A stretch of DNA of 64,000 nt from Ginglymostoma cirratum (lineage: Eukaryota): NCBI GenBank assembly GCA_024137785.1, contig JAHRHZ010000002.1, forward strand, positions 13,429,947 to 13,493,946, written 5' to 3'. A program made the position numbers and the translations under genes. The first letter of the stretch is position 1, and each line of letters begins with the position of its first letter. Of the stretch, positions 688 to 60,807 are shown in pieces. The notes below the pieces were generated by a model. That model saw only the letters and a program-made list of their open reading frames with translations. It did not search any database and had not been told where the DNA came from.

Positions 688-708
688 CTGCGGCCGAATC
701 TTTAGATA
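688..708 (-). CDS. Microexon 24 (21 nt): VSKDSAA
   Basis: gctctcattcatttcctttctcag|TATCTAAAGATTCGGCCGCAG|gtaagc. Confidence 0.85.
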
Positions 709-949
709 CTGAGAAAGGAAATGAATGAGAGCAGCACATGAAATGAACATTGCACAATGCACCACGGTATGAAATGGATTGCTATTTGATATCTTGAGCG
801 AAGCACTTCACTGTTAGATATTGTCTCATACGCATTCATTAAACAACTCACATAAGAAAAAAAGATTCCACGTCTGAAGAATTGCAAACTTTTCCATATT
901 TGACACTGAAATTGATTTTCAGTCTCACGAGCTACTTAAAATCCTTTAA

Positions 950-1680
950 AAAAATTATCCATGGGATATGGGCATGGGCATGGGAATGGCTAACCCATTC
1001 CTAGGTGACTTGAGAAGGTGGTGGAGTTGCCTTCTTGAACTACTGCAGTAGATTTGTTTCAGGAAGTTCCACAAAGACGTTAGGAAGGTCGTCCAAGGAC
1101 TTTAATTCCACAACACTGAAGAAACGCTGATATATTTCCAACTCAGGATGATGAATCGCTCAGAGGGGGGCTTGAGTCGGGGGGGCGTGGGATGGGTGAG
1201 TGGGCGTTGGTCAGGGGGAGTCATTTATGGCAATGCCATTGATTTTCAAATGGGAATTGTTCGACTGTTCTTTTCCGGAAATTGCTTGGTGTGTATGATA
1301 CTTGCCAGTTGTTAGCCCAAACCTGAACGTTGCCCAGGCCTTGGTACATTTGGAGATGGGCTGTTTCGATATCTGAGCAGTCAATGATGGTGCTGGAAAT
1401 GTGCACTCATCAGCTAACATCCCCACTCCTGGACTTACAATACAGAGATGGAGCAGTTGACGATGGTCGTGCAAAGGAAACCATCCTGACGATTTATTAG
1501 TTTGATGTGACTGACCACCAGCAAGCGCAACCAACTACCTTTATGCCAGCTATCACTCCAATCAGCGAGTGTTTTCCCTTTAATTCCTTTTCACTCTACC
1601 TTTGCTAAAGCTCCTCCTTGCCACAATCGGTTGAAAGCAGCTTTGGATGTCAAGAAGAGACACTCTCACCTCACTTATGC
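950..1680 (-). mobile_element. Decayed CR1/L2-clade LINE fragment (RT to 3' end)
   Basis: ORF remnants VGMLADECT and QGLGNVQVWANNWQV resemble the LINE RT FADD region; homologous to 7890-8450. Confidence 0.75.
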
Positions 1681-3089
1681 TCAGTAGGTAATGTCAAATT
1701 AACAGATCACTGTGTTTATTGTAGGGTTTCTTCGAGGTTTATCTCTTAAGCATACACATAATCCACCCAAAAAAAATTACATTGTTTATAATGGCCTGAG
1801 GTTGACCTATTGTTTTCTTCCTTTTTTGTTAAAACAAGTCCTGAAGTGTTTTTCATTTTTGATTCTAAAAAAAGTACACTTCCGTAATATTATGCTTTGA
1901 AATCTTTTGTCTTTTCTAAAAGAAAATTGTGTAGAAAGGCTAAACTTGAGGCATTGTTTTCCAAAGAAAAGTCTATTTTGTAGCTTATAAATCAATGATC
2001 GCGACTGAAATTGTGAACAACTGTCATTGCATTAGCTTATCTCAACAAATGCTAAACCTAGAATGCCCACATTAGCAAAAGGGAACTATTGCAAATTGTC
2101 GTATTCTGATAATTTAAAAATAAGTGAATGCTGAAAATGACAAGGTAGTCACGGAAGTATCATAAACAGTAATCAAAATAAAAATGCATATTTTACAAAT
2201 GCAAAATGTTGGAAATTTTAAATATTTTAAATACAAGCAGAAACTCGTGGAAGAGCTCAGAAGAGCTGACAGTATCTGAGGAGTGACTGACACTGTTCCT
2301 AAAAAAAATTTCAGTTACCCGCCTCTAACCCCACAAAAAAAGTGCCTGACTTGCTGAATGTTTCCATCATGTCCGTTTTTGTCTCATTCTGGATGCTTCC
2401 TGACTTGCAACGTTCTCTCATTTGTTGCTGTCACAACTTCATGAGTACATAAGAATTTGGTTCTAAATGTTGGATACTGGCGTCCTAACAAACACTTGCT
2501 TTCAATTAGCAGCAGTTATTAGAGCTTGCAATAGAAATGAAAAAAAGTGGATCATCAGCACAATTCCATTCCTAAAGCAGTGACTCATTTGAAAAAAAAG
2601 GGCAACGTAACTGACTGTCGTAGTGAAATTTAAAATGTTGCTTGTTATTTCATCGATTTACAACTTTAATTATTGAATTTGTCAATGTAATATTATTGCA
2701 TTTTCTTCACAAAGCTAATCTTTGTTCCAAAAACGATTTTGATTCTGGTAATCTTGTAAAATGCATAGCCTTGTTTCAGCCACTCAGTAAGTACACTTGC
2801 CAATTCCAGTTTGTTACAAAGTTAATTAAATACAGGAAAAATGGACACTGAGGAGCGTTGTGCCATACAGACAGAGCAAGTGATGGCATTTAATTAGAAG
2901 GTGTCTCGTAAATAATTATGCATTAAACTTCCTTCTCAATATACCGAATAGTCGTGGAAATATTCAAGTGGAAGCAGATTTGGGAAGTCACAAATAAAGA
3001 TCATGGCAAATATACAAAGGAGTGACATGGTTAATTATAATAGAAAGGTGACTGCATGCATAGTGAGAAAGTATACAACATAAGATAAA

Positions 3090-3275
3090 GGTAACGCTGT
3101 CATTGCCCTACAAGATAATGGGGCTACTCCCTTCAACCTGAGGATGACTACACCTCAGACAAGGGGAGAGTTTGAGAAGGAGCATCCTTCGTGGTAAGCT
3201 CACCAGGTACTAGAATTGGGCCAGTGCTTTTGGCATCACTCTGCATCACAAACCAGTCATCCAGCCAAGTGACCC
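3090..3275 (-). mobile_element. tRNA-derived SINE (possibly Meta-domain type)
   Basis: tRNA-like head on the minus strand plus a cctgagg...cctcag internal hairpin motif recalled from fish SINEs. Confidence 0.55.
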
Positions 3276-3334
3276 CACGCAACATATGAGTGCACTAGCA
3301 AGTGCTGTCAGTGGAGAGTATTTTTAATAAAAGA

Positions 3335-4820
3335 ATTAAAGTCTCTGTACCTGAATGCTCATAATTCCTGACAAGACACATTCATTCATTGCACAAATAT
3401 GTATAAATGAGCAGGATGTGATAGCAATTGTAGAGATGTGGTTGCAAAGTGATTGCTCTTCAAAACTGAATATTGAATTGTATTTGACATTTAGAAAGGA
3501 TAAAAGAGAGGGAGTAGGTGGATTCTGTCAATAAAAGGTGATATCATTAACGTGATGGGTGACATCAATTTGGAAGGCCACGATATACGATAAGTTTGCG
3601 TGAGAAATACATTAACAATAGAAATAAGTGACTGACATATGTAATTTACAGGGGGGTCGTAAAATTAGCTACACGTACATGGAATGAATACCAAGAAATC
3701 ATGGTGGATTATCTCTAAGGTACTGCAATGATCATGGGCGATTTTGTCTTCATTGAACAAATAACATTGGAAAGTATAACCCTGAGGAAGAATTCTTAAA
3801 GTTTATTTTAGTTAGTTTCTGTGGATAATTAAATCTTGGAATAACAATTGATCAGGTTATGTTCCTCGGCTGTTACAAGCACAGCAACATAGCAGAAGGA
3901 CAGGATTAATTTATGATTGCATAGGAGAGGATTTGCTCGTTAATCAGAGCATAACAGAATTTCAGTTTCAGTTTCGAGGTCGTAAACCTGGATCTGATTT
4001 AAATTTTAAATAGTGGATTGAGAAAACAGTTTAACCTTTCAGACTATATAAAGTTAACTGTAACATACCAAACAGGGCAAAAACAGAACATTTGAGTAAA
4101 CGGGCCAGTAGATATTAAGATGGACAACAAAAGCATCTACAGTACCTAAAAATGAAGACAGTGGCTGAAGTAAATGCTAGTCTCTTAAAGATCAATACTA
4201 ATAAAATTAAAAGGAAGCAACACAATGGCAGAAATTTTAAAGGTATATTTCACATTTGCAGTGATGGTAGTAGATCATAAATATATTCCAAGTATTCGAT
4301 AAAACCATATGGCAAAAGGAGGAATAACGTCAAAAATGTCAGTCATTAAAGAAAAAGTAATATAGAGAGAAGTAATTAAGGTCCAATGATCTGCATATTA
4401 AATTCTTACCGAAAATGACTGAGAGACACAAGATGATTGTAATCTTCCAAAACTTCTGGATTTTGAATTTTAAAAGTGTAAACCTCTGAATGGACTTGAT
4501 GAGTAAATGCTCAAAGGATTTCTGGAGGAATTTAGGACCAGGAGCACCATTTCAAAGGGTTTTCTGTTTAAGCCGGAGATGAGAAAGAATTCACTTGTAG
4601 AGAGTTGTTCACCATTTGAATTCTCTGTGCAAGATAACAGTGGAGGCAATGTCTTTGAACACATACAAATCTGAGATAAATGATTTTCTTATGGAAGGTG
4701 GTTGAGTGCTATGGTGGGGTGTGGGGGTTTGTAGACAGTGCATAGGCTCGTTGTTGCACGCTGGAAAGTGGAGTTGAAGCTATAATTGTGTCAGACAATC
4801 TCTTATTGAATGGTGGAATA
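3335..4820 (+). mobile_element. Heavily decayed, internally deleted CR1 LINE
   Basis: Starts LKSLYLNA (APE-like) and ends with a CR1-type 3' region (gagatgagaaagaattc..., tattgaatggtgga). Confidence 0.6.
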
Positions 4821-4919
4821 TTTTTTCATCTCTTTTACATTTCTTCAATGAATCAAATCAAGCCCCGTTAAAGGGGTACCCTTCAGTAATTAGTATATTG
4901 CAATGAAATCTAACGATTA

Positions 4920-5325
4920 TTCAAATTTATCTCGCATCCGTGATGGCCATCACAGTTTCAAAGAACTTCACAACCAGTTAAGGATTTTTGAAATACAGAC
5001 ACTGTTAAAATCTAGGAAAATCAATTGTTTCAGAAAAAGCAATGTGGCCATGGTGAGGTTATTATCTTTTCGTTCTTAATAAAGGCATATAAATCAGTCA
5101 CAGCAGTGGAATAACTGCTAAACTATTTCAAAATAACACTATCAGATATTTTACATACATTTTTAACTGGCCAATTGAGTCTCTGCTTACTGATTCACCT
5201 GAAAGTTGGCAGCTCTGACAGTGCAGTACACACTACATTGGAACCTTAGCATTGTTGTATGCCTTGAAACATTGGAGTGGGGCCTGACTGCCGAACTTTG
5301 CGATTCAGAATCATGATTGCAGGAA
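4920..5325 (-). mobile_element. Deu-domain-type SINE remnant
   Basis: Reverse complement resembles the tail and head of the copy at 42225-42565. Confidence 0.5.
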
Positions 5326-5335
5326 ACTGACGTAC

Positions 5336-5359
5336 CTCCGGCTGTTGAAGGGTCGATGC
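5336..5359 (-). CDS. Microexon 23 (24 nt): GIDPSTAG
   Basis: ctcatttttatttgcttttcatgcag|GCATCGACCCTTCAACAGCCGGAG|gtacgt. Confidence 0.82.
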
Positions 5360-9330: not shown

Positions 9331-9429
9331 CCATTATCCAAGGCTTTTCAAGAGTATTTTTTTTAATCATACACGAGCAAGGAGGTTATATAATTCTTGC
9401 ATTAAACATATGTTCCAACTCATTTGTAG

Positions 9430-10209: not shown

Positions 10210-10245
10210 CAGCATCTTTAAGTTTTTCCTGCAGTTTTCCTATTT
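10210..10245 (-). CDS. Exon 22 (36 nt): EIGKLQEKLKDA
   Basis: atattcatttctgatttcag|AAATAGGAAAACTGCAGGAAAAACTTAAAGATGCTG|gtgagg. Confidence 0.88.
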
Positions 10246-13443: not shown

Positions 13444-13470
13444 CTATGTCTTTTACAAGCAGTTGTCTCA
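13444..13470 (-). CDS. Microexon 21 (27 nt): MRQLLVKDI (repeat C)
   Basis: ttgataactttcatttcag|TGAGACAACTGCTTGTAAAAGACATAG|gtaaat. Versus the 27438 copy: two synonymous changes and one L>V. Confidence 0.9.
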
Positions 13471-14329: not shown

Positions 14330-14910
14330 ATTCAGTGTATTGGAGATGTCACATCTTGAATACTTTGCTTAGTTTTGGCCTTATTGCTTGAGGGATCAGG
14401 TAAATGAAGGCGTTGAGACGAGATTTTTGATGAATTTATGCTTGATACCTGAGAAGTGCAGGTTACCTTTTAAGAAAGTTTGGATGTCTGGGCTTGTTTC
14501 CACTGGAGTTTAGAAGAGCGAGGGCTAACTTGATTAAGTATGTAAAATCCTGAATGGTTTTGACTCAGTGGACTTAGAATTGATGTTTCTTCTTTTACGT
14601 GAGAGCAGAGTTAACCTGTAGGGTTTTGAATTGAAGAATCATCCTTTTAGGGTTGAAATGAACAGAATTTGTTGCTCAAAGGTTTGTGCATTTCTGATCC
14701 TTCTGCCTAAAAATATGGTGAAAACTGAGTTGTATTTCTTTAATGTGGAGGTAAGTAGATTCATGTGATGTTGGTGAATCATGGGTTATTTAGAGTAGAA
14801 GGGAATGTAGAATTAGAAGCAGAAATAGATCAATCACTATTTCCTTGGATGTTGGAGTGGACTGAAGCAGGTTGGAGCAGTCAGCTGAATCGCCGAATTC
14901 TGCTCCTAAT
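14330..14910 (+). mobile_element. Decayed CR1 3' fragment
   Basis: catcttgaatac..ttttggcc, gggcttgtttccactggagtttagaaga motifs of the CR1 ORF2 C-terminus. Confidence 0.7.
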
Positions 14911-15229: not shown

Positions 15230-15256
15230 TGCTTGCTTGGAGAAGTTTTTTGCATT
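15230..15256 (-). CDS. Microexon 20 (27 nt): ECKKLLQAS (repeat C)
   Basis: tttttattatttttctag|AATGCAAAAAACTTCTCCAAGCAAGCA|gtaaga. Confidence 0.9.
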
Positions 15257-16081: not shown

Positions 16082-16675
16082 GGAGATAGTGGGAACTGCC
16101 AATGCTGGAGAATTTGAGATAATAAGGTGTAGAGCTGGATTAACTCCGCAGGCCAAGCAGCATCAGAGGAGCAGGAAGGCTGATGTTTCGGTTCTGNNNN
16201 NNNNNNNNNNNNNNNNNNNNNNNNNNNNNNNNNNNNNNNNNNNNNNNNNNNNNNNNNNNNNNNNNNNNNNNNNNNNNNNNNNNNNNNNNNNNNNNNNNNN
16301 NNNNNNNNNNNNNNNNNNNNNNNNNNNNNNNNNNNNNNNNNNNNNNNNNNNNNNNNNNNNNNNNNNNNNNNNNNNNNNNNNNNNNNNNNNNNNNNNNNNN
16401 NNNNNNNNNNNNNNNNNNNNNNNNNNNNNNNNNNNNNNNNNNNNNNNNNNNNNNNNNNNNNNNNNNNNNNNNNNNNNNNNNNNNNNNNNNNNNNNNNNNN
16501 NNNNNNNNNNNNNNNNNNNNNNNNNNNNNNNNNNNNNNNNNNNNNNNNNNNNNNNNNNNNNNNNNNNNNNNNNNNNNNNNNNNNNNNNNNNNNNNNCAGA
16601 ACCGAAACATCAGCCTTCCTGCTCCTCTGATGCTGCTTGGCCTGCGGAGTTAATCCAGCTCTACACCTTGTTACA
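16082..16675. mobile_element. Penelope-derived fold-back element spanning a 400-N assembly gap (16197-16596)
   Basis: 16124-16196 and 16597-16669 form a perfect 73-bp inverted repeat; same family as 34390, 51120 and 63781. Confidence 0.85.
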
Positions 16676-18321: not shown

Positions 18322-18345
18322 CTATGAATTCTTGCTGATCACTTT
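18322..18345 (-). CDS. Microexon 19 (24 nt): ESDQQEFI
   Basis: attaattttgtgctttctcgcag|AAAGTGATCAGCAAGAATTCATAG|gtaagc. Frames 0 and 2 contain stops; phase 1 is open. Confidence 0.85.
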   Translation of the reverse strand, partial: KVISKNS

Positions 18346-20135: not shown

Positions 20136-20156
20136 CTGAAAATTTCGTTTTTGATC
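20136..20156 (-). CDS. Microexon 18 (21 nt): GSKTKFS
   Basis: caccttcttctacattcaag|GATCAAAAACGAAATTTTCAG|gtaaag. Counterpart of GPKGKVL. Confidence 0.8.
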
Positions 20157-20738: not shown

Positions 20739-20774
20739 CTGTTCCAGATACACGATCTTTTAGTTCTTTAAGCT
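20739..20774 (-). CDS. Exon 17 (36 nt): ELKELKDRVSGT
   Basis: gtgttatctgttctttcacag|AGCTTAAAGAACTAAAAGATCGTGTATCTGGAACAG|gtgaga. Aligns with EINALQERMSGE. Confidence 0.88.
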
Positions 20775-21094
20775 CTGTGAAAGAACAGATAACACAAATG
20801 CTGATAATTAGTCATTTGTTTTAGCATTCTGCATAGTTGTAAGGATGTGTTGTGATTTGCGGTTGCAAAAATTATTGCTATCTTCACCTGGAATTGAAAA
20901 CGTATGTACAAATAATTAACTACTGGATATCCCAAAACCCTATTACTGAATCAAAATAAAGGCCATTGTTAACATGCAATACATTTTATTTTGCTGGATA
21001 ACTTTTCTGTCTAGGCGTTATGTTCCAACATTTTAAGAAGTATGGGTCAAAATTATTAAAATCTGGAACAAGCAGGCTAACTGAATTCTTTTTC

Positions 21095-21355
21095 ACATTC
21101 TCCCCTTGTCTGCGTGTGTTTCCTTCTGGTGCTCCGGCTTACTCCCACAGTCCAAAGATGTGTCAGTTAGGTTGATTGGCTATGCAACTTGTCCTCAGTG
21201 TCAAGGAAATTGTGGATGGATTAGCCATTGGAAATAGAGGTTTGCAGGGATAGGGTAGGTAATGGGTGGGACTGGGATGTTCTTCACAGGGTCTGTATGG
21301 ACTTGATGAGCTGAATAGCCTGCTTCCACATTGTAGGGCTTCTCTGATTCTGTAA
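21095..21355 (+). mobile_element. HE1/V-SINE, 5'-truncated
   Basis: V-domain ggtgctccggcttactcccacagtccaaagatgtg..gttaggttgattggc plus a CR1-like tail. Confidence 0.85.
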
Positions 21356-21855: not shown

Positions 21856-24800
21856 CCTGCATCATTGAAATGATCAAGGTAATAAAATGCAATACCATGA
21901 AAGTGGGAGATCCTGACAGGGAGAATTACTTCCCTAAGCTATTCCAAATTTGAATTCACTTGAGAACTAAAACCCTGGAAATTCGACTGCACTAAACTTC
22001 GCACAGCTTCATGAGTATTCAGTGCTATACAAAACTTTAACATTAACTAAAAGGCCATCCGTGAAAAAAAAACCTGAGGCATTTGTTAAACTAAATTAAT
22101 TTTCTTTACGTTTCAGTGAAAATAAAGAGGTATTGTGTTGCAGCAGTAGAGTCATTGCCTCTGAACTACAAATTCGTTCTTAATGTCTGACTCCAAACTT
22201 CATGACAAACAAGGTGAGTATATATTGGGGTCTAATATGTTGATATTCAACTTGTAACTTCTTCAAACTAAACACATGGAATGTAACTACAAGGAGGAAA
22301 GATTTCTGATCAACTATGTGAGTTAGAATTGGAGTCACCATTATCACACTCTACAGCTGTAGGCGACAACATTCACACAGTTTGCATTCTGCCACAGTGA
22401 TGTTTACTGTAAGCTTCTTTGGATGGATATTCGGTATATATTTGTTTGGGATGTATTCAAGACTTGTAACTTGCCAGTGTCGTGGCGTCATGGATCTACC
22501 TTCGGATAGAGAACCCGTTAAGAAGATTTGTACTCATTTTGTTTTAAATCTCACTTGCTGCTAGAAATACATAACTGGGACACTCACTCCGAGTGTCAGA
22601 AAATACCAGCTTACTACATTCAAGAACACTGATGACTTGCATTAAAGCAGGAGCAAGAACAGGGGCAGGGTCTGCCATTGCTGGGGTGCAGAGCAAGAGG
22701 AGTGAGAGGTGGGCAGGCAGCGGAGACGGGGAGAGCTTATATCACCTTGCACGAAAAGTGGGGTGGGAATGCAATTAGAGTCTGGCCAGTGACTTAGAAA
22801 AGCAACTATGAAACATGTGAGAGCCTTTTAACACTTTTTCAAGATAGTGAGTGTTGGGAATTTTTTGTCAGTGGGGTCACGAAGAGCAGCTATGCCAACG
22901 AGTGGACAAACCGGGTCAGCTGGCTGGAAGATCAAGTAATTGAACGAGTAGCTGGTGACGAATGGAGTAATTGCTGGTCGATGAATGAGTGCCTAGATGA
23001 GTGAGTAATAGTTGCCAAGAGAGTGAATTGCTGGCTGACCATGTTAATGAACTAGACTGAGCAAGACACACATCCTTCCTCAAAAACCCATGCCCGTAGC
23101 AAACGGGAAAATGCAGACTGAAAGACAAATTGCTTTTGACCCCACTTTCATGTGAATTCCACCGAGGTCAGCTCGGAATGTGGCCCACCATAAACATCCA
23201 AGGGACAATGTTTTTTAAATCCAACTTGTTTGATTTGCTTTAGTCCCAGCCTTTTCCTAGAAGACAAGGATTTTGGGCCTAGTCCTTTTCTCTCTCTAAC
23301 CCTACTTCTTAATCATGAAGGCAAACAAATTAAATCTAATAGTTAGATATTTGGCTAGCTTTCATTAAAATTCTAAATTCATGAAATTCTATAAACTGTG
23401 AATCTGCCGGGATGGGAAACAATGTCCTCTGGTGTTATTTGTATCTCTGACTGAAAAGCCCAATGACAATAATTCATAACAATAGTGAATAAAACAGGTA
23501 TTGCACCGCAGTTGTAGCATCATCGCCAATGAACTACAAACTCTACCAAACTTCATGGTAAGCAAAGTGAGCGCATATTGTGGCCAAATATGCTGATTTT
23601 CAACTTGTAATGTCTTCCAACTAAACCAATGGCATGTAGCTAAAAGTTATCGTATGAGAATTATGACTCTTATGCTCTGTTGCTTGGAACTCATCAATGG
23701 TCTTTTAAACATACTTATATGTTTAAATGATACATTTAGATTTTGCCTTATGTGACTCTCATAAAGCACTTTTTGGTATGGCTTAGATTTAAAATGTTTG
23801 AACTCTTTCTAGAAAAGGTATGTAGAAATAATTTTTGTGCACTGTAATTGTTAAAACAAAGTGTTTTCGTTGTGTGGAGGTGCTTTTAACAAAACTCTGA
23901 CACCATTTTACATGGTTGATGACCAAGCTTCTCTTTTCATAAATTATAAAGAATAGCGAGTTAATGAGCCTTTTTAAAAATTGCAAATTGCATAATATGC
24001 GCTGCTGAAAATCCAAAATTTAAAACAAAAGCACAACAAATCCTTATAAGTCTGAGATCAGTTGTGAAAAATTATGACAGGTCATCCATATGCAATATTT
24101 AGGCTTTTCGTTTACAACAATTTTGCCTGACTTGTGGAGCACTTCCAAAATTTCTGTTTAATTTACGCCCATATTGGTTTAATTCTGGTCCTGAGCTTTG
24201 ACAGGTACTCCCACAAGGTTTTGGTTCTATGATTGGTGAATAATGAAAAGCCAGAAAGGGCTTAACTACCAAAAACAATTATTAAAGCAGTATGATGACA
24301 GAAGCATGTTTTACAGTTTCTCACATGACAATGTTGTACCATTAACAATTATTTTGCCTGCAGCAAGAAGAGTGAGGCACAGATGCAGGGAGGCCAATGA
24401 TATTTTTATTCTGTACTATCCTACTGACTCAGCCTTCCTAGTGGTTGTCTTCACAAATTGGGTATCATTGGTTGCCTGTTATGTGTTTCATTAGATAATG
24501 ATCCACTGAAATTAAGGGGTAGTTTTGACTTTGCTGATTGTGCAAAATGCAGAATGTCAGCTCGGCCACCCATTTCAATAAATTAAATGCAAAAGAAAGT
24601 TTTGAAAAATGTGTGAATAATTATCCAACTTTGATCTCACATTTTATTACCTCAACAGAAGAAATTGAACATTGGACTAGGTGCATATAGCCTTTGTGCA
24701 CTGGAATGATGATGCTGAATTTATGATCTACATCATTACTTCCGGTGACTTTAAAAGTTTCAGTATTTGCATTTCGCTGACTACTTCATAAATATTGTGG

Positions 24801-25143: not shown

Positions 25144-25170
25144 CATCTTCTTTTGTACGCAGAACTTCCG
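25144..25170 (-). CDS. Microexon 16 (27 nt): AEVLRTKED
   Basis: ttaacatacacttatgttcctgcag|CGGAAGTTCTGCGTACAAAAGAAGATG|gtaaat. Same size and K position as the MRQ-type exons. Confidence 0.82.
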
Positions 25171-26519: not shown

Positions 26520-26595
26520 AGGCTAGGGCTTGTTTCATGATTAGGGCTAAGGTTAAGGTTAGGGTTAGGTTTAGGGGTTAGGGGTTTGGATTAGG
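26520..26595 (+). repeat. Degenerate (TTAGGG)n-like array
   Basis: ttagggctaaggttaaggttagggttaggtttaggggttagggg. Confidence 0.8.
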
Positions 26596-27437: not shown

Positions 27438-27464
27438 CGATATCTTTTAAAAGCAGTTGTCTCA
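27438..27464 (-). CDS. Microexon 14 (27 nt): MRQLLLKDI (repeat B)
   Basis: cctaacattaccttgctgatttgtattacag|TGAGACAACTGCTTTTAAAAGATATCG|gtaatt. Confidence 0.9.
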
Positions 27465-28547: not shown

Positions 28548-28574
28548 TGCTCGCTTGAAGAAGTTTTTTGCATT
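28548..28574 (-). CDS. Microexon 13 (27 nt): ECKKLLQAS (repeat B)
   Basis: caattccttacttctcag|AATGCAAAAAACTTCTTCAAGCGAGCA|gtacgt. Differs from the 15230 copy at two synonymous sites only. Confidence 0.9.
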
Positions 28575-30339: not shown

Positions 30340-31240
30340 CCCACGCATAGAAAATAGGGGCTGGATTGGTCAATAGACCATTTCATCGTGCTCTACCAAC
30401 AATGTGTTAATAACTGATCATTCAGGTCAGCACCTTGTTCCCACTTTCTCTCCAATTCTTTGACCCCTTTAGCCCTCTGACTTATTTCAATGTTTTCGCT
30501 CCAACTACTTTCAGTGCCTGAGATCCCCATAGGCTCACCACAGACTAGGTGTAGAAATATCTCCTCATCTCAGCCCTATATAACCTATCCCATGTCCTTA
30601 AGATGTGACCCCGGTCATCGGGAACATCCTCCCTTTGTTTACCCTGGCTAGTTGTGTCGGAATTTTATAGGTTTCCAAACAACGCCCCCCCCAACTCGTT
30701 TCATGTCTAGCGAATACAATCACAACCAGTTCATTGTATCTTGCAGTGTCAGTCCCACTATCCCAGGAATTGGTCTTGTAAGCATTGATTGCACTCCTTA
30801 CATATCAAAAACTTTCTTCCTCAGATAAAGGGTTTAAAAAAGGCCACACTACTCCAGACATGCTGCACCAGGTTGCAGCCATTCAACGACTGTTGTGCAA
30901 GGAAATCCAGGTCTTAATGCTCTCTCCCCTTTCCAAATCTAATTCCATTCAAATAACAATCTTCCTTCCCATTTTTGCTACCAATGTGAATAAGCTTATG
31001 TTTATCCACGTTAAATTTGATCTGCCATGCATTTTCCCACTTACTAAGCTTGTTCAAATTATACTGAAGCATCTCTGCATTCTTACAGCGCACCCTCCTA
31101 CACAGCATTGTGTCATTTGCAAACTTGGAGACATTGCATTTAGTTTCCTCATCTAAATCATTAATATATATCATGAATAGCTGGGGTCCAAGCACCAATC
31201 CCTGGGGTACTCCACTGGTCACTGACTGCAATGGATGGAA
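30340..31240 (-). mobile_element. CR1 RT and 3' fragment
   Basis: VTSGVPQGLVLGPQLFMIYINDLDE..SKFANDT..WQIKFNVDK. Confidence 0.9.
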
Positions 31241-32321
31241 GGATGGATTTATTCTATAATTGTGTGGAGAGAAATTTATCCTGTTGGTAAATGCAAAACC
31301 GGATGGATCACAGCAATGATGCATTATATGCCCACCCTTATTCATTTAGAATAAATATATTGGTACCAAATCACTTGTATATTACAAGCTTGTATAGTAG
31401 ACGTTTTATAGAACTCTGACCAATTTACCTCCTTAGGATCATGTTCTACCTCTATTACGTACTTACACTTCATTGTCAATTGTCATCATTTAAAAAATGA
31501 AATAAAACTTTTGCAGTTTGGCCACTTTATAGGAACTTTGAGAGATTATCCCAGGAAGCCTGCCAAACTATTTAAATATCATTAAGGGTAATCATTGGTA
31601 AGATGTGAGTTTAATTAGAGATACGAGAAATTAATCCAAGTGAATTTAAATATTAGCAAGCAATTCTGTACAAGAGTATACCATGGAAACCTGCTAGGAT
31701 ACTTAATTATCTTCATTTTGCAAGAAAGCAGTGCAATGCCATCATAACCTGATTAGTGCTAAATGAAATTGAAGTTAATAGGAAAGTGAAATTTCTCGTG
31801 AAAGTTGGTAAATTTCTTATTTTTAAGTACTCATTTTCATTCAACACCTCATGCAAATGAGATAATGATAAACATTATTCTTCAATATTGATGTTTTGTC
31901 TATTGAAGATACAAAACATGTTTTCTACATCCCAAGATGGACAACAACTTTGCAACGCTCAATCTCCAGACTACAGGCTGAAACCAAGAGAATACCTTCA
32001 CATATCTTAAAAGCAGTGGTAGGGAAAATACAGAATTTACTGGTAAACCCAAACATTTAAGACACAAGGTTCGAAATAATTCAGGAATAGCACACATCAT
32101 GCTACTTTTTTACTTAAGACCTAGATTCAGAGATCGATAGGTTGCCATTGTGTACACCAAATGGCCTGTTCATTTTCTGTGCAATATGTTCTTTGTTTCC
32201 TCATCCCTGTGGAACGCTATTTCATGAGCACACATTTCTACCAGCTTTGCCTTGCACTCAATATCAATAGCATTATTTCGACATGTTTAAAATGCAGCAA
32301 TATAGCAAGGCATGTTTGTAC

Positions 32322-32345
32322 CTGTATATAATTCTTCCAGGTTCC
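32322..32345 (-). CDS. Microexon 12 (24 nt): GNLEELYT
   Basis: ctaattagttgtccaccttatcacag|GGAACCTGGAAGAATTATATACAG|gtacaa. Same slot and size as ESDQQEFI in the next repeat. Confidence 0.72.
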
Positions 32346-34131: not shown

Positions 34132-34152
34132 CTAATACTTTCCCTTTTGGTC
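34132..34152 (-). CDS. Microexon 11 (21 nt): GPKGKVL
   Basis: ctactgatttctgtgttttag|GACCAAAAGGGAAAGTATTAG|gtaagg. Frame 0 ends in TAG; phase 1 is open. Confidence 0.85.
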   Translation of the reverse strand, partial: DQKGKY

Positions 34153-36971: not shown

Positions 36972-37007
36972 CTTCACCTGACATCCTTTCTTGCAATGCG
37001 TTAATTT
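36972..37007 (-). CDS. Exon 10 (36 nt; 30 nt if the internal gtgaag donor is used): EINALQERMS(GE)
   Basis: gctaacttcctatgcttacatgtttttaacag|AAATTAACGCATTGCAAGAAAGGATGTCAGGTGAAG|gtaaaa. Consensus branch point ctaac; 36 nt matches the paralogous exons. Confidence 0.85.
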
Positions 37008-37477: not shown

Positions 37478-37514
37478 AACCCTAACACTAATCCTAACCC
37501 TAACCCTAACCCTA
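37478..37514 (-). repeat. Short (CCCTAA)n telomere-like array
   Basis: aaaccctaacactaatcctaaccctaaccctaaccctag. Confidence 0.85.
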
Positions 37515-37619: not shown

Positions 37620-38500
37620 TGAAACACTCTTACTCCAGCTTACGGTCAGAAGTAGAAATGTTTGTTAATCATTGTACAGTGTTCTCTATAGTCTATAACT
37701 ACAGTGATGCTGAAACAGATGCAATACACATGAAGGAAGACCTGGATAATTGTCAGTCGTGGGATTTTACATCAACAAATAACATTTCCATCATGGCAAT
37801 TACTGACCCCGTTTCCAACAATGGGAATAAAACAAGTTCCCCTTCAATATAAACGTCATTTCTAGTCAAATGTGATCATAAAGCTGGGCACTGCAACCAA
37901 CTAGAACTGAACTGATTTGATCCAGCTATATAATTAGTTCATTTTTTATATCAGGCCAGGTGCTAGGAATTCTATGGTGGGTAATTCACCTCATGATTTC
38001 ACAAGCCCTCCAATAAGTTAAAGGTGAAGTGTGTGATGAGATACTCTCGACATGCTTGGGTGAGTGAATTTCAGTAAAGCACAAGCAATTCGATATTACT
38101 CAAGCCAAAAAGAACCTATTTGATTAGGTAAAAAAAGACAGGTGACCATAGCATTTCTCAACCTGGCAGCATTGTGTACAATTTATACAATATTCTTCAG
38201 AAACTCTAAGGGGCACTCTTAAGAACAACAGAAGAATCCAGACAAGTGGTTTCAAACTCTGGGATGGCAGATGAATGGGAGCAACACAATTGTCAAGTGA
38301 CATTCTAAACCTTACACTATTTTAACTTGGCAATATATTGTCATACAATAACTGCTGGTGGGTCAAACTCCGGAAACTAGCCATATAACACCACAGTGGG
38401 AGTAAGTGCACCACATTTATTGTAACATTTCTAAATGGAGGCTGCCAATAACTGTTTTCACAGCAGTGAAGGATGGGCAATAATTTTTTGAGTTTGTAGT
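37620..38500 (+). mobile_element. Decayed L2/CR1-clade LINE
   Basis: RSEVEMFVNHCTVF..MKEDLDN matches the RT segment at 7945-8274. Confidence 0.7.
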
Positions 38501-38827
38501 TTACATCACATGTTAAAATGATTAAGTTGGAGTTTTATCTGTTACTAATTCCAATAAAGATTGGTAAAGTCGAAAATTCCTTTTTAATCGCAGAATCATA
38601 GATGTTCAGAATAGTTTCTCGGAAAGTTGTTTCAAAATAAAATCTGGGATTTTAACTCAATATCATTTACTTATCTACGGCTTAAGTAGGTGGCAATAAT
38701 TTAGCGTTCACAAACCATTGTTACATTCCTTGTTTCATGAGTTGATGCTAAAATACTTAAATGCTTTTCTCTACATCTAGCCCTTGTCATATTTTCATTG
38801 AACCATCTGCACAATTAAGTAATTTAC

Positions 38828-38854
38828 CTGCTGTCTTTTGCAGAATCTGTCTCA
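38828..38854 (-). CDS. Microexon 9 (27 nt): MRQILQKTA (repeat A, MRQ exon)
   Basis: ttgctcattttctttacag|TGAGACAGATTCTGCAAAAGACAGCAG|gtaaat. Paralogous to the exons at 27438 and 13444. Confidence 0.88.
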
Positions 38855-40319
38855 CTGTAAAGAAAATGAGCAACATAGCACATTGATAGGATTTCGAGCT
38901 TTGTTCCGTAGGTTTATGGAGTTCAATTATTTGAAAATATATTAATTTCTAAAATTTGTGACTACTTTTGACATCACCGAAGCAGGTTGACTGACCAATC
39001 CTTGAAGGAAGCACTTCATTGTCATGCATACACACCAGTGGAAATCTCTTCCCTTGAGCAGAATTTTGTTGTTTGCAGAGTATTGACTTAGTATGACAAG
39101 ATTAGGCAGTATTTACAAGTCAGGCCATCAGCAAAACCATCACGATTTTCGCTGAAATCATGATCTAAACTCAATTAGTCATCCAAATTTACAATCGTGT
39201 TCAGTAACATATCAATATATCAGTTGTCCAAGAATTGTATCACCTGAGGTTTATTTGGGACAGACTACCTCCTTGCCCATTCTATTCTCCTGTAAATTTT
39301 GTCGCTTACCTTTTGAATGATTTAAATTTTTCTACATGCTTTTATTTGCTCGCCCTAGATTAGTGATCCTGTTCCGTAACAGCTTGAAGTTATTGTTTGA
39401 GACCCCACCTTTTAAAATTTGGGTAGAAATGTTAATCTGACAGAACCGTCAGACAGAAATTGAATGGAGTACAATTTCTTGATTTGGTGGGCATTACAGA
39501 GATTTATTTTAATCCTCATGGTCCCCTAGAGTTCCAAATGCACATGTTAGAATCAAGCCTTTAAGTTTGTTCTGGTTATGCCATTACGATTTTATTTCTT
39601 CGTTTCTTTTTGAGTTAGATCTGAAAGAAAAAGTTCAAGTCACTTCATTGCTCTTCTTAATTACGTGTACCTACTCCAAGTTAACTGCTGTTTTACCTCT
39701 TAGATTATTCCAAGGGCAATTGCCTGAGTAGTTTTGCATTTGCTGGTGGGGAAGACACCGAACAGAGCAAGTCTGGAGAATATCACCAAGTGTTGAAAAA
39801 GAAAATCTTAAAAAAAGTTCTATCTTTTGAAAGAATTTTGATTCATTACTGCAGCGAATGACAATCTACGTTGTTTCACTTTAATGTGGGCAAGGTAACT
39901 CATATCATTGCATATGATTGTGCTGATTTTGTTTTTTCTTCAGGTATAGGGTCCCCAATGCAAACGTTTAAACAATTAAATCATTTGGATTTTTACTGGA
40001 ATCAGAGAAGACTTAATTTTCTTTTTTGGGATTGACGAAGTTCGTTGTTGCTCTTGTTAACACAAATAATCTTTTGCTTGTTAGATGAAATTTAGAATGC
40101 TAGAATGGTTATCTCAAAATGGAATAGCATCGTTTCACCATACTTGCACAACGCAGGTACGACTTTGCACAAAAATTGTCAAGAATGTGCTCGCAATCTA
40201 GCCTCATTCAACCAGAACCAACAACTGTTGTTTGAAGTTCACTTCAGTGGATGTAATAGTAATAATTTACAGTACATGCAGTACGCCCGATGTCCTTTGA
40301 ATATCAGAAATATTAAAGA

Positions 40320-40550
40320 TGTTTTTATCAACCTGTTCAAATGTGAACACATCTAGAACAGGTGGAACTTTAACCTAGACATTTTGCCCTGTAGGTAGGG
40401 ATAATACAAATGTGCTATAAGAATTTTAGAGATATAGTTACTTTACCCAATCTGTTTTGACATGCTCTGACACAATTCCAAAGGCAGGGACTTGATACCT
40501 CAAGTTCTGGTGAAGAGGTAGGGACACTACCACCGTGCCATGAGACCCCT
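40320..40550 (-). mobile_element. Two tandem copies of a short tRNA-derived SINE
   Basis: Minus strand ggcacggtggtagtgtccctacct (A-box-like); a diverged second copy at 40322-40420 and a third near 32960-33066. Confidence 0.6.
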
Positions 40551-40894
40551 ATATAATGCAAAATTGTCCGTAGGTTAAGACGATTATATTTGCACATTGT
40601 TCTGTGCTCGCAGGGATTTTTAGAACATATTCATTTCTGATCCGTTTTCTGAGTCTGAGTAAGTTTCTTTGTTGCATTTAATGATTGTTTAAGTAGAATA
40701 TCAATGGGTATGCATGAATTCATGAGTATTGACGTTTGAAGTTTCTTTCTGTTGGCATGGAGTTTAGTTTAATTCAAATAACGAATAAAGACAGCTTGAT
40801 TGCTTGAACCTACGATATAGATTTCATTGACATTACAATGTTCAAGAAGTGACATACATGTAAACAGTGCTATGAACTGTCTGATGTGACTTAC

Positions 40895-40921
40895 TGGTTT
40901 TTTGCAGAAGTTCCTTGCATT
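40895..40921 (-). CDS. Microexon 8 (27 nt): ECKELLQKT (repeat A, EC exon)
   Basis: ttatgctattttaaag|AATGCAAGGAACTTCTGCAAAAAACCA|gtaagt. Paralogous to the exons at 28548 and 15230. Confidence 0.88.
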
Positions 40922-54392: not shown

Positions 54393-54416
54393 TGGTAATC
54401 ACTCCTTTCTTTAAAT
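54393..54416 (-). CDS. Microexon 2 (24 nt): DLKKGVIT
   Basis: atatttctttattttag|ATTTAAAGAAAGGAGTGATTACCA|gtaaga. Counterpart of the ELKGTTKT exon. Confidence 0.7.
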
Positions 54417-55479: not shown

Positions 55480-57390
55480 CCACACACGTGGCAGGCAATA
55501 ACATTCTCCATCAGAATACAATCTAAACTAACCCCTGGATTTTCAATCAAATTACAATCACTGAATCTTCCACTATCAACATTTTGTGAGTTACTATTGT
55601 CCAGAATCTGAACTGGAATAGCCATATAAATGCTTGGCCTACAAAAGCAGGCCAGATTTTAGAAATTTTCTAGCTAGAAGCTCATCCAATTCCTGGCTGC
55701 CTTGTACAAGGCAGAAGTCAGTCATATAATGGAATACTTGTGACATGTCTGATGGATACAGCTCCAACACATTCAAGAAGGCAACATCATCCAGGAAAAA
55801 AAGAACTGCCTGAAAAGTAACCGTACAACACCTTTGTCACCTTTTTTGGTGCTCCATCCACCATCAACACACAGGCCTGAACCGCGTGATGCCCTCCACA
55901 AATTCTCCACCACCAGCATCTTCCAAGCATGCACCCACTACCACCTGAAGACCTGGGCAGAAAATTCATGGAAACATCACCTTCTGAAAGCTCCCTTACA
56001 AGCCACACACTATCCTGTCTTGGAAATTTAGCAATAAATGTGGAGGTGTAGGCCATTCAAACTCTCGAGGCTGCTCCAAAATTGAATACCATCATGGTTG
56101 ATAGTCGAGTTCAATATTCTCATGTCATGCCCTCCCTTATCTCTTGATTCTTTTAGCCACAAGGACTATATCTACCTCTTTATTGAAGACACATAATGTT
56201 TAGGCCTTACTACTTGAGTTAGTGAATGCCACAGGCTCACGACTTCCTGGGTGAAGAAACTTCTCCTTACGGAATAGAATTGAATCCAGACAGTGTTGAA
56301 GCAGGACATTTGGCCCATCGAGTCCACACCGACCCGCTGAAGAGCATCCCACCCAGACTCATCTCATCCCTCTAACCCTACATTTCCCATGACAAATCCA
56401 CCTAGCCTGCACGTTCCTGGATGCTATGGGTAATTTAGCAAGATCCGTCCACCTAACCTGCACATCTTTGGGCTGTTGGAGGAAACCGGAGCACCGAGAA
56501 GAAAGGTGTGTAGACACGGCAAAATGGGCAAATTCTGCACAGAGAGTCACCCGAGAATGGAATTGAACTTGTGTCCCAGCCACTGTGAGGAAGCAGTGCT
56601 ATCCACTGAGCCATTTTGCTAGCCCGTGCCTTAATCCTAAAATATACTTAATCAAATATGCCCTGTTTCTGGAGTTTCTCACCAAAGGGAACATCTTTCC
56701 TGCATTTAGTCTGTCTACCCTGTTAGAATTTTATAGGATTCTATGAGACCCCTTGTTCTTCTCAACTCCAGTGATTATAATCCAAACTGGCTCAATCCCT
56801 CCTCATGCACTGGTCCTGCTTTCAATCTGGTAATACCTCACTGCACTCCCTCTATAACAAGAATGTCATTCCTCAGATAAAGAGGCCAAAATTGTAGAGA
56901 TTAGCTTCTCCAATGCCGTGTATAATTGCAGCAAGTAATCCTTGTTGCTGTACTCGAATCCTATCGCTATGAAAACCAACATACGGTTTGCCTCTTTTAC
57001 TGCCTGTTGCACCTGCACATTTTACTTTCAGTGACTGGTGCAGGAGAGCACCAAAGTCACTTTGACCATTCCCCTCTCTCAATTTGCAACTATTCAAATA
57101 ATAATGGCTTCGTATTTTTGCCACCAAAATGGACAACTTCACATGTACCCATATTAAACTTCCATCTTTTATGCATTTGCCCACACACCCAGCCTGTGCA
57201 ATCATACTATATTGCTTTTCTTTCATTGTCGCTGTTTTACAATTCTGGACCTCCTTCTGTACCGTACAATAGGCGTCCTTACACCCTGAAGATTGCAGCA
57301 GTTCAAGAAAGCAGTTCACCTTTACTATCCCCAGACAACTAAGTATAGATAATAAATGCTTCCCTAGTTAGCGGCACTCACATCCCATGA
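55480..57390. mobile_element. Nested LINEs: + strand L2/CR1-clade fragment interrupted by a - strand CR1 (about 56035-57200)
   Basis: ccagaatctgaactgg..ccatataaat motif on the + strand; CR1 3' end ggccattcaa.. at 56050; + strand tail resumes near 57230. Confidence 0.7.
56272..56625 (-). mobile_element. Full-length HE1/V-SINE inserted into CR1
   Basis: tRNA head (tggctcagtggatagcactgct), V-domain (ggtgctccggtttcctccaacagcccaaagatgtgcaggttagg), CR1-type tail. Confidence 0.9.
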
Positions 57391-58149
57391 ATTTATTAAA
57401 GAAGGGAACAGTTAATATGGAGATGCTAATCTCTGAATCAAACCTAAATTGTAGCAGAGACAGAGTCCATTCTGGATGGATTGCTATAATTAAAGCTTAC
57501 ATGGAGTTGCACTAATTTTCACCAGAATTTCCCTGATTTTGTAATATTTATTTATGAAATCCACAATCCCATTAGAATTGTTTCTTATTCTGTTCCTATG
57601 TTCTGCCATTTTCACAGATCAGTTCCTATTAACACTGAGCACTCTGTCTGTCCTTAGAAGCCTTTTGCAACTTTGTTATTAAACTATATGGTGTATCATA
57701 ATACCAAGTGCTGAAATGCATCGCTTCACTGTTTCTAATGTTTAATTAAATGTAATACTTCTGTGTCTAATTTGTAAGACAGTGATCCTAGCAGCTGATC
57801 TTGGGGAATATTATTGTTTATCATTCTTTACTCCAGATCATTTACCACCATACCTGTCTTTAAACTACACATTCTGAGATCTACACTTCAAGGGATTGAT
57901 CTCTTACATGACCCTAAATGTTATTAACCTCAGTTTCACGTGGTATCTTAGTTAAAGCTTACTTACACCTGTCATCACCTTCAATAACTTAATTTGTTAT
58001 TTCATCAAAACAATTAAATTAAGCCAGTGTGTCAAGATCTGTCTGTACAAATAAATAAACACTACTTAAATATTCTAAATTACTTCAAATTTGCCTGAAG
58101 TCTTCCACAATTATGATTCCTGATGCTAAATCACCATCACTTTTAAAGT

Positions 58150-58318
58150 CAACAAAGAACCATGGATGCTAGACATCTGAAGCAACAACAGAATTACTGG
58201 AGAAACTCAGCAAGTCTGACAGTATGTGCGGAGAGAAAGCAGAGTTAAAATTTTGTGTCTAGTGATTCTTCTTTAGAACGTTAATTCTGCATTCTCTGCA
58301 CAGATGTTGCCAGACCCT
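58150..58318. mobile_element. Short fold-back element (family of 21665)
   Basis: gtctgacagtatgtgcggagagaaagcagagttaa / ttaattctgcattctctgcacagatgttgccagac inverted arms. Confidence 0.7.
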
Positions 58319-60783
58319 TGCATTAAGTCAAGGCTTTACAATTATAGAAAAAAAAAACATTCGGAAATCTGCTGACTGCACCTGTCTTATTTTAGCATGT
58401 GGATTGCCATTCGTTTCAACAAGGCGACTTACCTTGCCCAGAATATCGCCTTGCTATCACCACACACCCAATACAGCATGCTTATCAATTGGCGCAGCAA
58501 CCATTATCCCTAATGAAGTTGCTTACATCATTGTGTGTCAACACGTGTTTATTCGTGGTATTGAAAATCACATATCATGTATTCTAACCTATACTCCACT
58601 TCTAAGCACTTACCTTAAATGACACTATCTCATATCCTGAAACTTGCTGCTGTTTGGAAAGGTTTTCATTGACTTTTATGTTTGATGCCACCTTATTTTC
58701 ATGTTGCTACATTGTCTGTCTAATATTTCTCTTCAATTTCGCTTTTAACATATTGTATTTGATCTGGTTTTGGCTGGAATACTTGACCTGATATGGCATC
58801 ATTGTCCTTTTCTTAGACGTCATTTTCTTTATGTTTTCAGTAATCCAATGGGTCTTGTCTTTTTTCTCTTTTTATTCTTACTTGGTTATAGGAGTCTCTG
58901 GCTGCACTGGAATTCATTCCTCTTCTCTACTTCCTATACCGTTCTATTCAGCGGTTGTTATAGTGCACATTGACTGCATCTGAAAAACAAAAAGTTGCTT
59001 GTTGTCCCCTTACATTGGGTCCTATCAGACATATTACCTTGTATTAATCCTCTCACATCTTATTGAAAATTTCTGCCCCCAGTCGAGAAGATCTGTTGTA
59101 GATTGTCTGCCCTTGCTCATCACTAAATTAAACCTTTTGAAATGATTGTGCCACTTGCACCATCGCTATTCCACACTCCTCGTACTTAGTCCAATTCATC
59201 CATCACTACCCCCATTCCTACGTACAGCACCTGTGATCTACTTAAACTGAGAATATTCTGAAAAATGAATTTTTCATGAACACACCTCCAAATCCATCCA
59301 TTCCTGATCACTTACCCTAAAATGCTGCATTCAATATTTGAGTAATTCAATTCTCCCAGCATTACTATACGATTTCGCTTTTCCACCTTTGTTATTTCAC
59401 TGTATAATAGCACATTTACCTTTTGGGAGGTGCGGCTATAGGCAGAAATGCCCATTATGACCTGATCAGTATGTTCTTGGGTACTTCATGGAAATGGGCC
59501 ATCCCTCCACACTTCTTTGTTAAAGAAAGCCAATCCTTGTGAATGTTGATTGCCAGCCTGCAGCTGCTAGAGTTTCTGACTATGTGTGGTCACCAACAAT
59601 TAGTAGCTTACTTACACATCTATCGGCACAATGGTGGCTGTTGGCCAGTTTGAGGAGTGGTTCTTTTTACGAAGGATTGTAACTGCGGCCAGAGGATTTT
59701 GTTTTTGTTAAGCAGATCTAAAACTGATAAGATGATGTTTCATGTTGGAAGTAAACTCGAGTTCTGCCTCCGACAGTGGTAACATCCTATTTGATAGCTG
59801 TCCTTTACAGGCAGAAATCCATTATAATGTTCTTCAATAAAGAGTACAGAGAATTCAGAAAAAAAAATCCTTAGGAAAATAATAGAAGACACTTTCTATT
59901 CACTACCACAGGGAATGGTTGTTCTGATTCAAAGGGATGAATTTAAGGGAAAGTCGGGGAAGCATTTGATAGATGAAACATTTATGTTTAACAAGATGGC
60001 AGCTGACTTGAGTGAAGCATAGACATGCACGTAATCAGGTTGGGCAAAATGATTGGTTTTGTGCTCTATATTACGTATTATTCAGATAATAAGAACAGAA
60101 AATGTCATCCTGTCTGTTTCACTGATCTCCATTCATGTTCCCTCTTCCAGTTTATCAGCTTCTGTACTTCCTCCGAGACTTTGTTACCTCTTAACTTGAG
60201 TTTATGACAATGTTTTCTGTCAGGTATGCTTATTCCAAGTTTGTTGAATTCCTGGGTGTTTTCTTTCCGTTCTTTCTTCTACTTTCTCCAATTTCTGCCC
60301 AGAATTCCGGACAGTTTTTAATTTGTGGGGCTCCCTTTGCCCTCAGGCTCGATTTCTTTTACTATCTCTGACATTTCGTGCCTCTGCCTGTTGTGCAATG
60401 TCAACACAACAAATTAATTCAGTACGTTCTTGGTATCCCAAGGGTTAAAATGCACTCATGTTTGAATGGCTGTTATCATGTTCAAGAGAGAAAGAAAACC
60501 GCAAAACAACAACCTAGCATTCAGTGAACTTATTAAAGCCATTGTTCAAAGCTCAGTTTACTATGGCAGTAGAAATTATTGTTATTAATTGGGCATTATG
60601 AAGTGTTTGTTCCAAACGTTTGCTTACTTGAGAGTACAAAACAAAATTAGAAATCAAAAGCAAATGGATTTACATCAAAAGGTGTGAGGTGACGCTAAAA
60701 AATATGTTGCGAAACGTATTTGAATATGGGAAATTGCGTTATATATCATCTGTTAATGCACATACCCATTTTGAGTACGCTAC

Positions 60784-60807
60784 CTGCGATTTCTTTTATC
60801 TTTTGAA
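60784..60807 (-). CDS. Microexon 1 (24 nt, phase 1-1) of unidentified coiled-coil microexon-chain gene: xQKIKEIA
   Basis: Minus strand ctaatgtggtgctttattttcttattttgtcag|TTCAAAAGATAAAAGAAATCGCAG|gtagcg. Branch-like ctaat and a pyrimidine tract. Same size and pattern as the AEKIAELK exon. Confidence 0.75.

Follow-up and report, generated by a model that had tools for sequence, protein, structure and literature searches.

The question raised by a 64,000-nt stretch of the genome of the shark Ginglymostoma cirratum (contig JAHRHZ010000002.1, here C2, positions 13429947-13493946; the whole stretch is referred to as the window) is what gene could be built from microexons, since a first-pass annotation had traced across it a minus-strand chain of very short exons. 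The analysis indicated that these segments are almost certainly real coding exons, and that the window, which lies from position 1 to 64000 (minus strand) inside one gene with the exon chain found on both sides, is the middle, about a fifth, of a far larger real gene. This gene spans ~329 kb of the 4.36-Gb genome (minus strand, C2:13660608 to 13331711). The DNA covered extended beyond the window by 200 kb upstream and 40 kb downstream, with samples totalling 30 kb from more distant downstream positions and another 2 kb from farther upstream; positions beyond the window are given on C2 or as extended coordinates (C2 position minus 13429946).

The chain had been described as 24 exons of 18-36 nt (636 nt in total) running from an acceptor at 60807 to a donor at 688. 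Both end points were matched, and the chain was recovered as 23 symmetric phase-1 exons of 21-36 nt (621 nt), 19 of which are firm (Table 1). The model used to score candidate exons was trained on 80 exons from elsewhere in the gene; an earlier model, part of whose seed came from window exons, had served to pick these, and most of the upstream ones were then confirmed by an orthologue. The 18-nt candidates at 58215 and 53847 were rejected (scores -6.5 and -6.8).

The segments show a bias in length, strand and phase beyond chance. A generic splice-site scan of the window for strong candidates of 9-60 nt gave, by length modulo 3, 18/7/2 on the minus strand and 6/4/3 on the plus strand. Over 261 kb, 36 candidates of 27 or 36 nt were found on the minus strand vs 4 on the plus strand, and all 36 are open in phase 1, compared with 15 and 13 in the other frames. 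Scores of at least 10 were reached by 16 of 1138 minus-strand candidates (15 loci) vs none of 1165 on the plus strand, and scores of at least 5 by 24 (19 loci) vs 4. Four exons (54416, 34152, 32345 and 20156; scores 4.8, 0.6, 4.8 and -5.7) were accepted solely from their place in repeated cassettes. A good pyrimidine tract does not precede every exon, the acceptors at 40921 and 26049 scoring below 0. The joined frame is indeed stop-free, but this carries no weight, because the last base of each exon is G (88), A (13) or C (3) and a junction stop is possible in none of 5356 ordered exon pairs. The absence of a conventional-size exon from the window held: a Pfam match was obtained for only one of 41 stop-free stretches of at least 100 codons (a reverse-transcriptase fragment), and an Rfam scan of the window gave 0 matches.

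Conservation between duplicated window exons is confined to the exons. Two pairs are 93% and 89% identical, with four silent changes and one replacement, whereas similarity in the 100-nt flanks is 47-59% (for random flanks the mean is 45% and the maximum 56%). The pN/pS ratio on duplicated exons was 0.18 vs 0.33 over 9 independent pairs, a value that is only indicative because the choice of pairs at ≥70% identity biases it.

Upstream of the window the chain continues through 63 microexons to extended position 227071, 167 kb beyond the window up to a start exon of 132 nt (C2:13660477-13660608; extended 230662-230531, minus strand). This single-copy exon carries an ATG (MAAP...), is symmetric and is open in phase 1 from its acceptor (score 8.5); no microexon above threshold was detected in the 33 kb upstream of it. 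Downstream of the window, 17 microexons lie in the next 35 kb, and a further 10 were obtained from samples down to C2:13335631. The total is therefore at least 113 microexons (the count of 115 less two exons of an upstream array) of 18-42 nt: 62 of 27 nt, 30 of 36 nt, 14 of 24 nt and three of 21 nt. Gaps between listed exons range from 138 to 12,798 nt, with a median of 1,950 in the continuous part.

A word-index search with the start exon gave no match, and contigs of two putative RNA runs gave no cover over it. For window positions 38500-48000 no RNA data set was listed; neither result bears on expression. A HMMER search of 1.84 billion representatives returned six proteins, five of which were unrelated repeat proteins and were dropped. 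The true match is XP_038671248 of Scyliorhinus canicula, named "centromere-associated protein E-like", whose residues 1-39 align from the start-exon Met. Through this protein, further orthologues were retrieved from S. torazame (XP_072329363), Leucoraja erinacea (XP_055520637) and Narcine bancroftii (two clusters, XP_069775393-417, with isoforms numbered to X20); the orthologue set amounts to 5 of 8000 candidates including the query, and homologues were found only in sharks and rays. In RefSeq these proteins are named CENP-E-like, EEA1-like, myosin-heavy-chain-like or uncharacterized. Such names are automatic labels from generic coiled-coil likeness, and the suspicion of a mis-annotated vertebrate microexon-chain gene was thus well placed.

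Guided chaining placed 57 exons, 50 of them already present in the de novo list, over 562 of the 630 residues of XP_072329363; of the 56 junctions, 52 were flush. Identity was 315/505 (62%) to XP_072329363 and 165/342 to the electric ray Narcine. A stretch of 17 orthologue residues without an exon falls on an assembly gap of 5,000 N, and the 21 additional residues in S. torazame represent a 27+36 pair duplicated in that species. Exon gain and loss is lineage-specific among the orthologues; exon order and units are otherwise common, and a DVLRIQFINK block is conserved. A 27-nt exon with a GC donor (extended 80008-79982, minus strand) is backed by both orthologue chains. Isoform models of this RefSeq kind rest on RNA-seq introns. 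An alignment covered 16 Narcine isoforms, 15 from a 19-member cluster and one other. Internal deletions relative to X1 were seen in 13 of 15; 11 of these deletions are distinct (8, 9, 12 or 18 residues), and nine fall within one residue of predicted exon units, matched by eye. Two in-frame donors were seen in the exons at 60807 (24/42 nt), 37007 (30/36 nt) and extended 133670 (27/36 nt); the last of these exons matches a 9-residue Narcine deletion.

The encoded peptide has the periodicity of a coiled coil. Heptad power in the window part was 15.1, compared with 8.8 ± 1.9 in shuffles, and the top period in two orthologues was 3.50 and 3.51. Hydrophobic residues occupy positions 1, 4 and 8 of the 36-nt exons and position 3 of the 27-nt exons, a spacing that keeps the seven-residue step across a 36+27 pair. 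The highest 19-residue hydropathy, calculated after the unrelated tails of three models had been cut off, was 0.28-0.72, so no hydrophobic segment is present. A profile of the rod gave no PDB match.

The 3′ end of the gene appears to be a B30.2/SPRY exon. First seen as a SPRY match at C2:13331753, ~98 kb beyond the window, it runs from C2:13332234 to a stop at 13331711 (minus strand, 524 nt, 173 codons), with an intact frame and a phase-1 acceptor (score 7.2). Three 27-nt microexons scoring 19-21 lie within the 7.3 kb directly before it. The SPRY match has an E value of 4.5e-12, and the best of 89 solved-structure matches is the B30.2 domain of BTN3A1 (E 3.8e-21), followed by BTN3A3 and TRIM21. 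A single-sequence AlphaFold model of the exon reached a pLDDT of 36 and was not used. The two histidines of the BTN3A1 phosphoantigen pocket align to Asn and Phe in this exon. Between the rod and the B30.2 exon lies a 49-kb gap, in which four 5-kb samples contained 2, 1, 4 and 0 exons of the same cassette classes. The next SPRY exon downstream (13.196 Mb) has its own B-box; by look, the locus at C2:13196517-13219350 (minus strand) is an ordinary TRIM gene (B-box plus SPRY). The genomic order, a heptad region and then B30.2, fits, as does the phase, and it is likely that the two are joined in one transcript. The first-pass annotation had guessed at such a downstream exon, which is present on the right strand and in the right phase; its picture of a gene of 24 exons, all microexons, gives way to 113 microexons plus a 132-nt start exon and a 524-nt terminal exon.

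It had also suggested looking for Ig-V and transmembrane (TM) exons upstream. If the gene were a true membrane butyrophilin or BG, with signal, Ig and TM exons further upstream spliced into the 132-nt exon, the acceptor of that exon (8.5) and the frame open from it would be explained, and the V-set scan scored 150 of 809 candidates. This is nevertheless highly improbable. In S. canicula and Narcine the models begin with MAA and lead directly into the rod, the residues before the Met differing between species; the orthologue models have no signal peptide, TM segment or Pfam domain above cut-off, no Ig family in the Pfam scan, and no Cys/His motif in their acidic and polar N-termini. No TM exon lies between the start exon and the first microexons, there is no convincing TM or Ig exon candidate in the 33 kb upstream, where another microexon array follows further on, and no butyrophilin-type IgC (C2-set_3) match occurs at C2 13.3-13.8 Mb (88 of 88 candidates scored). 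Nor is any B-box exon listed for C2 at 13.22-15.25 Mb, where 150 of 201 candidates were scored. A type II lectin, suggested by Tyr motifs in the start exon, was dropped: Narcine lacks the Tyr motif, there is no TM exon, and the 3′ exon encodes a B30.2 domain. The protein would be soluble and cytosolic and have at least ~1,300 aa, with an acidic head of 39 aa followed by a coiled-coil rod of ~1,100 aa, ~160 nm long if uninterrupted, and by B30.2 at the C terminus.

Most MHC class I matches in the genome (25 of 28) are on C2, at 0.67-9.97 Mb, and this contig also holds many SPRY, B-box and IgC exons, including a dense TRIM cluster. The S. canicula orthologue is probably on MHC chromosome 13, since its record of 163,470,629 bases agrees with the end, at 163,380,576, of the chromosome 13 gene list in the portion of the PMC10751288 supplement that covers the catshark. 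Similar microexon arrays occur 0.1-1.0 Mb upstream of the gene. A motif scan gave 14 matches, 9 on C2, five of them used for motif design, against 1 in the control. The second array is a minus-strand 36+27 pair at C2:13755339/13755202 (C2:13755176-13755339), and single matches of the same exon classes were found at C2 13738717, 14052063, 14687290 and 6014601. A scan with a degenerate pattern stayed at background level (32 matches vs 116 in the control), and only two of its hits, both by known loci, were used (C2:14441773 and C141:2735284, the latter on another contig). The closest B30.2 paralogue (C2:14671625, 38%) has the 36-nt-class match 14687290 15 kb upstream on the same strand, and the second-closest (33%) has the C141 match 83 kb upstream on the minus strand; the post-hoc chance of such a match is 0.0003-0.001 per B30.2. 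Both loci, C2:14671625-14687323 and C141:2651518-2735317 (minus strand), are probably further family members. The array at C2:13738717-14441773, 80-780 kb upstream of the start exon, may be a tandem paralogue or part of a far longer unit. A 36-nt-class match with two mismatches inside the MHC class I cluster (C2:6014601-6014634, minus strand) may be due to chance.

The explanation favoured here, with moderate confidence, is a single gene for a protein of rod plus B30.2 that acts as a soluble immune-type scaffold, spacer or decoy. Granted a transcript joining the two parts, the scaffold or decoy role, argued by analogy, is an evenly balanced prospect. The rod would dimerise with itself or with the coiled coils of butyrophilins or TRIM proteins, and the paired B30.2 domains would bind a cytosolic partner; because neither a RING nor a membrane anchor is found, the protein may serve B30.2-based immune signalling as a scaffold, a spacer or a decoy. 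Since every exon is symmetric and none makes a junction stop, exons could be gained, duplicated and skipped freely, which would set the length and register of the rod (27+36 nt being three heptads). Paired skips would keep the heptad register and single skips would break it, and shorter forms ending before B30.2 may also be made.

Two groups of observations weigh against this explanation. The first concerns the join between rod and B30.2. Transcript support for the window exons is nil, all five retrieved orthologue clusters ending before them: S. canicula at ~136.8 kb, S. torazame at ~68.7 kb, and Narcine, whose models have three different tails, at the exon preceding 60807. A Pfam scan identified no B30.2 in any orthologue model, and a weak search for longer homologues (754-2150 aa) found none. 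Of the 49-kb gap all but 29 kb was read, and the empty sample comes from the 17.7 kb upstream of the last three exons. The array matches at C2 13.74-14.44 Mb are followed by no listed B30.2, which shows that exons of this type are also present where no B30.2 is detected. All this would suit two genes, namely a coiled-coil microexon gene ending in the gap or before the window and a separate "orphan B30.2" gene with a few microexons. That arrangement is distinctly unlikely: the same 36-nt exon class recurs on the downstream side, at distances of 19.9, 34.0, 51.6 and 72.5 kb from the window start, the S. canicula and Narcine tails resemble read-through ends and differ from each other, and an empty 5-kb sample is expected at times because chain introns reach 12.8 kb. 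The ends of the orthologue models, and the higher Pro/Gly content of the window part (6.3% vs 1.8%), would also agree with a gene that stops near 64.5 kb, the window exons behind it forming a silent or decaying extension. This is very unlikely in view of the exon-limited conservation with silent changes between duplicates, the 15 loci scoring ≥10 vs 0 decoys and the intact B30.2 frame at the end.

The second group concerns the immune role. The nearest class I exon is 3.4 Mb from the gene, and the affinity of the terminal exon to butyrophilins vs TRIM proteins rests on 78.5 bits for BTN3A1 vs 65.2 for TRIM21 only; the in-genome ranking of B30.2 relatives mixes TRIM- and IgC-linked exons. Language-model neighbours of the rod are centrosome- and cilium-type coiled-coil proteins (CCDC89, LEKR1, ODF2), with low feature overlap. 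The same structure could then have a non-immune job, as a tropomyosin-like cytoskeletal, centrosomal or sperm rod with the B30.2 domain as anchoring head. Consistent with this are the precedent of the zipper protein treated in parts of PMC4046983 and PMC5938342, the conserved DVLRIQFINK block, the neighbours just named (leads only) and the retrieval of one conserved orthologue per species from sharks to rays, which is not the pattern of a fast-changing family. The place on the MHC contig among TRIM and butyrophilin-type genes and the lineage-specific exon gain and loss point the other way, and a purely structural job is considered unlikely.

Comparison with known systems helps to place the single rod-B30.2 gene. 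In the sections of PMC4046983 and PMC5938342 that treat chicken BG tails, the coiled coil is encoded by 13-36 exons of 21 (sometimes 18 or 24) nt, exon groups are duplicated, alternative splicing or read-through shortens the rod, and a soluble BG tail, the "zipper protein", regulates actin-myosin in the intestine. Pairing of BG tails with orphan B30.2 domains is proposed in passages of PMC8813856 and PMC5938342. MHC linkage, a long coiled coil encoded by mini-exons and variable splicing are common to both systems. BG, however, has signal, Ig-V and TM exons and no B30.2, whereas the gene described here has no Ig or TM exon and a probable B30.2. Unlike the one-heptad BG exons of 7 codons, its at least 113 exons, spread over 330 kb, are mostly of 27 or 36 nt (9 and 12 codons), and only a pair makes whole heptads.

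As in the butyrophilins BTN3A1 and BTN2A1, a heptad region precedes B30.2 and the MHC chromosome is involved; butyrophilins lie on it in several cartilaginous fish, according to part of PMC12841164. Unlike them, the gene has no IgV, IgC or TM exon that could be found, and its rod has ~1,100 residues compared with the "a few" heptads mentioned for butyrophilins in a section of PMC4046983. A soluble coiled coil plus B30.2 is also the layout of TRIM/B30.2 proteins (TRIM21, TRIM7, the shark "zinc-binding protein A33-like"), but RING and B-box are missing from the orthologue N-termini, no B-box is listed at the locus, and the microexon-built rod is far longer. With no signal, TM, butyrophilin-type IgC or B-box exon found, the gene is set apart from butyrophilins, BG and TRIM proteins alike. 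As in schistosome micro-exon genes (MEGs) and triadin, most coding sequence is divided among short symmetric exons whose skipping preserves the frame. MEG products are secreted and have a signal peptide, and triadin is a membrane protein with an N-terminal TM segment and a KEKE-rich unstructured lumen domain. The present gene differs from both in having neither signal nor TM and in forming a heptad rod; the triadin analogy drawn in the first-pass annotation fails on these points and on the B30.2 exon. By analogy, the gene would work like the soluble inner part of a butyrophilin or BG tail.

The gene is partly annotated under wrong names in four elasmobranchs, and its architecture was not found described in the literature searched, a search to which subscription journals and bioRxiv supplements were external. 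The main text of an elasmobranch MHC paper (PMC10751288) contains 0 occurrences of TRIM, BTN, B30.2 or coiled. In the part of its supplement that lists sawfish MHC genes, runs of "uncharacterized" models appear, none of which could be connected with this gene. The sheets for white shark and catshark give no product names, so the gene may stand there unrecognised.

The coordinates of the window exons are collected in Table 1. Four further minus-strand candidates, 5336-5359, 24325-24357, 14467-14502 and 62223-62249, are symmetric and phase 1 with fair-to-strong splice sites and atypical peptides, and were neither accepted nor rejected; the peptide of the candidate at 24357 is a non-heptad stretch. 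The reverse-transcriptase fragment (30917-31345, minus strand; Pfam RVT_1) belongs to a LINE-type element. Other interspersed repeats with thousands of candidates are present, e.g. at ~21090-21350, as are short interstitial (TTAGGG)n-like arrays at 26541-26595 and 37478-37514. Assembly gaps at 16197-16596 (400 N) and extended 122304-127303 (5,000 N) may hide exons.

Table 1. Microexons of the chain in the window, listed in the direction of transcription; scores are those of the exon model unless stated otherwise.
Feature	Length (nt)	Peptide	Position	Strand	Remarks
microexon	24	QKIKEIA	60784-60807	-	score 7.3; class of conserved NKIAQ-type exon; alternative donor gives 42 nt
probable microexon	24	LKKGVIT	54393-54416	-	score 4.8; cassette place parallels 44183
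microexon	27	DKLNKMKS	52183-52209	-	score 19.1
microexon	27	KDALQVTL	49755-49781	-	score 13.2
microexon	24	EKIAELK	47287-47310	-	score 14.7; 79% identical to upstream exon 170138
microexon	24	LKGTTKT	44160-44183	-	score 10.0
microexon	27	KGKPSKYD	41721-41747	-	score 10.1
microexon	27	CKELLQKT	40895-40921	-	score 6.6; 78% identical to 15256
microexon	27	RQILQKTA	38828-38854	-	score 17.7
microexon	36	INALQERMSGE	36972-37007	-	score 13.3; alternative donor gives 30 nt
probable microexon	21	PKGKVL	34132-34152	-	good splice sites; score 0.6 (training without 21-nt exons); 71% identical to 20156
probable microexon	24	NLEELYT	32322-32345	-	score 4.8; cassette place parallels 18345
microexon	27	CKKLLQAS	28548-28574	-	score 5.0; 93% identical to 15256, both changes silent
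microexon	27	RQLLLKDI	27438-27464	-	score 10.9; 89% identical to 13470
microexon	36	IEKLLAQLQAA	26014-26049	-	score 21.0
microexon	27	EVLRTKED	25144-25170	-	score 13.6
microexon	36	LKELKDRVSGT	20739-20774	-	score 18.6
weakest microexon of the set	21	SKTKFS	20136-20156	-	splice scores 3.0/4.4; model score -5.7; cassette place only
microexon	24	SDQQEFI	18322-18345	-	score 16.0
microexon	27	CKKLLQAS	15230-15256	-	score 11.4
microexon	27	RQLLVKDI	13444-13470	-	score 12.0
microexon	36	IGKLQEKLKDA	10210-10245	-	score 20.1
microexon	21	SKDSAA	688-708	-	score 8.3; strong splice sites

If the preferred explanation is correct, the oldest MHC-bearing lineage would possess a third architecture beside butyrophilin/BG and TRIM, consisting of a rod plus B30.2 with neither ectodomain nor RING. 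The function of BG tails and their completion by orphan B30.2 domains are open questions in the chicken work, as presented in sections of PMC8813856 and PMC5938342, and this gene would join both halves. Its at least 113 microexons are three times the longest BG tail count given in the part of PMC4046983 concerned (36 mini-exons). The finding suggests that MHC-chromosome maps of cartilaginous fish can miss large coding arrays that annotation has split and misnamed, and it offers a natural system in which to ask whether register-shifting skipping of single exons is regulation or noise.

More speculatively, there might be an elasmobranch MHC-side family of soluble "headless butyrophilins", rods of >1,000 residues with B30.2, each of >100 microexons. 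They would form at least three tandem arrays within 1.4 Mb, and one more on another contig. By combinatorial skipping of units of 8, 9 and 12 residues, such a family would provide each cell with a repertoire of rod lengths and heptad registers that tunes butyrophilin/TRIM pairing. Lying in an immune locus, it would parallel in a vertebrate the micro-exon genes of schistosomes, and it could serve as a present-day model of the ancestor from which the BG tail and its proposed "orphan B30.2" partners came.

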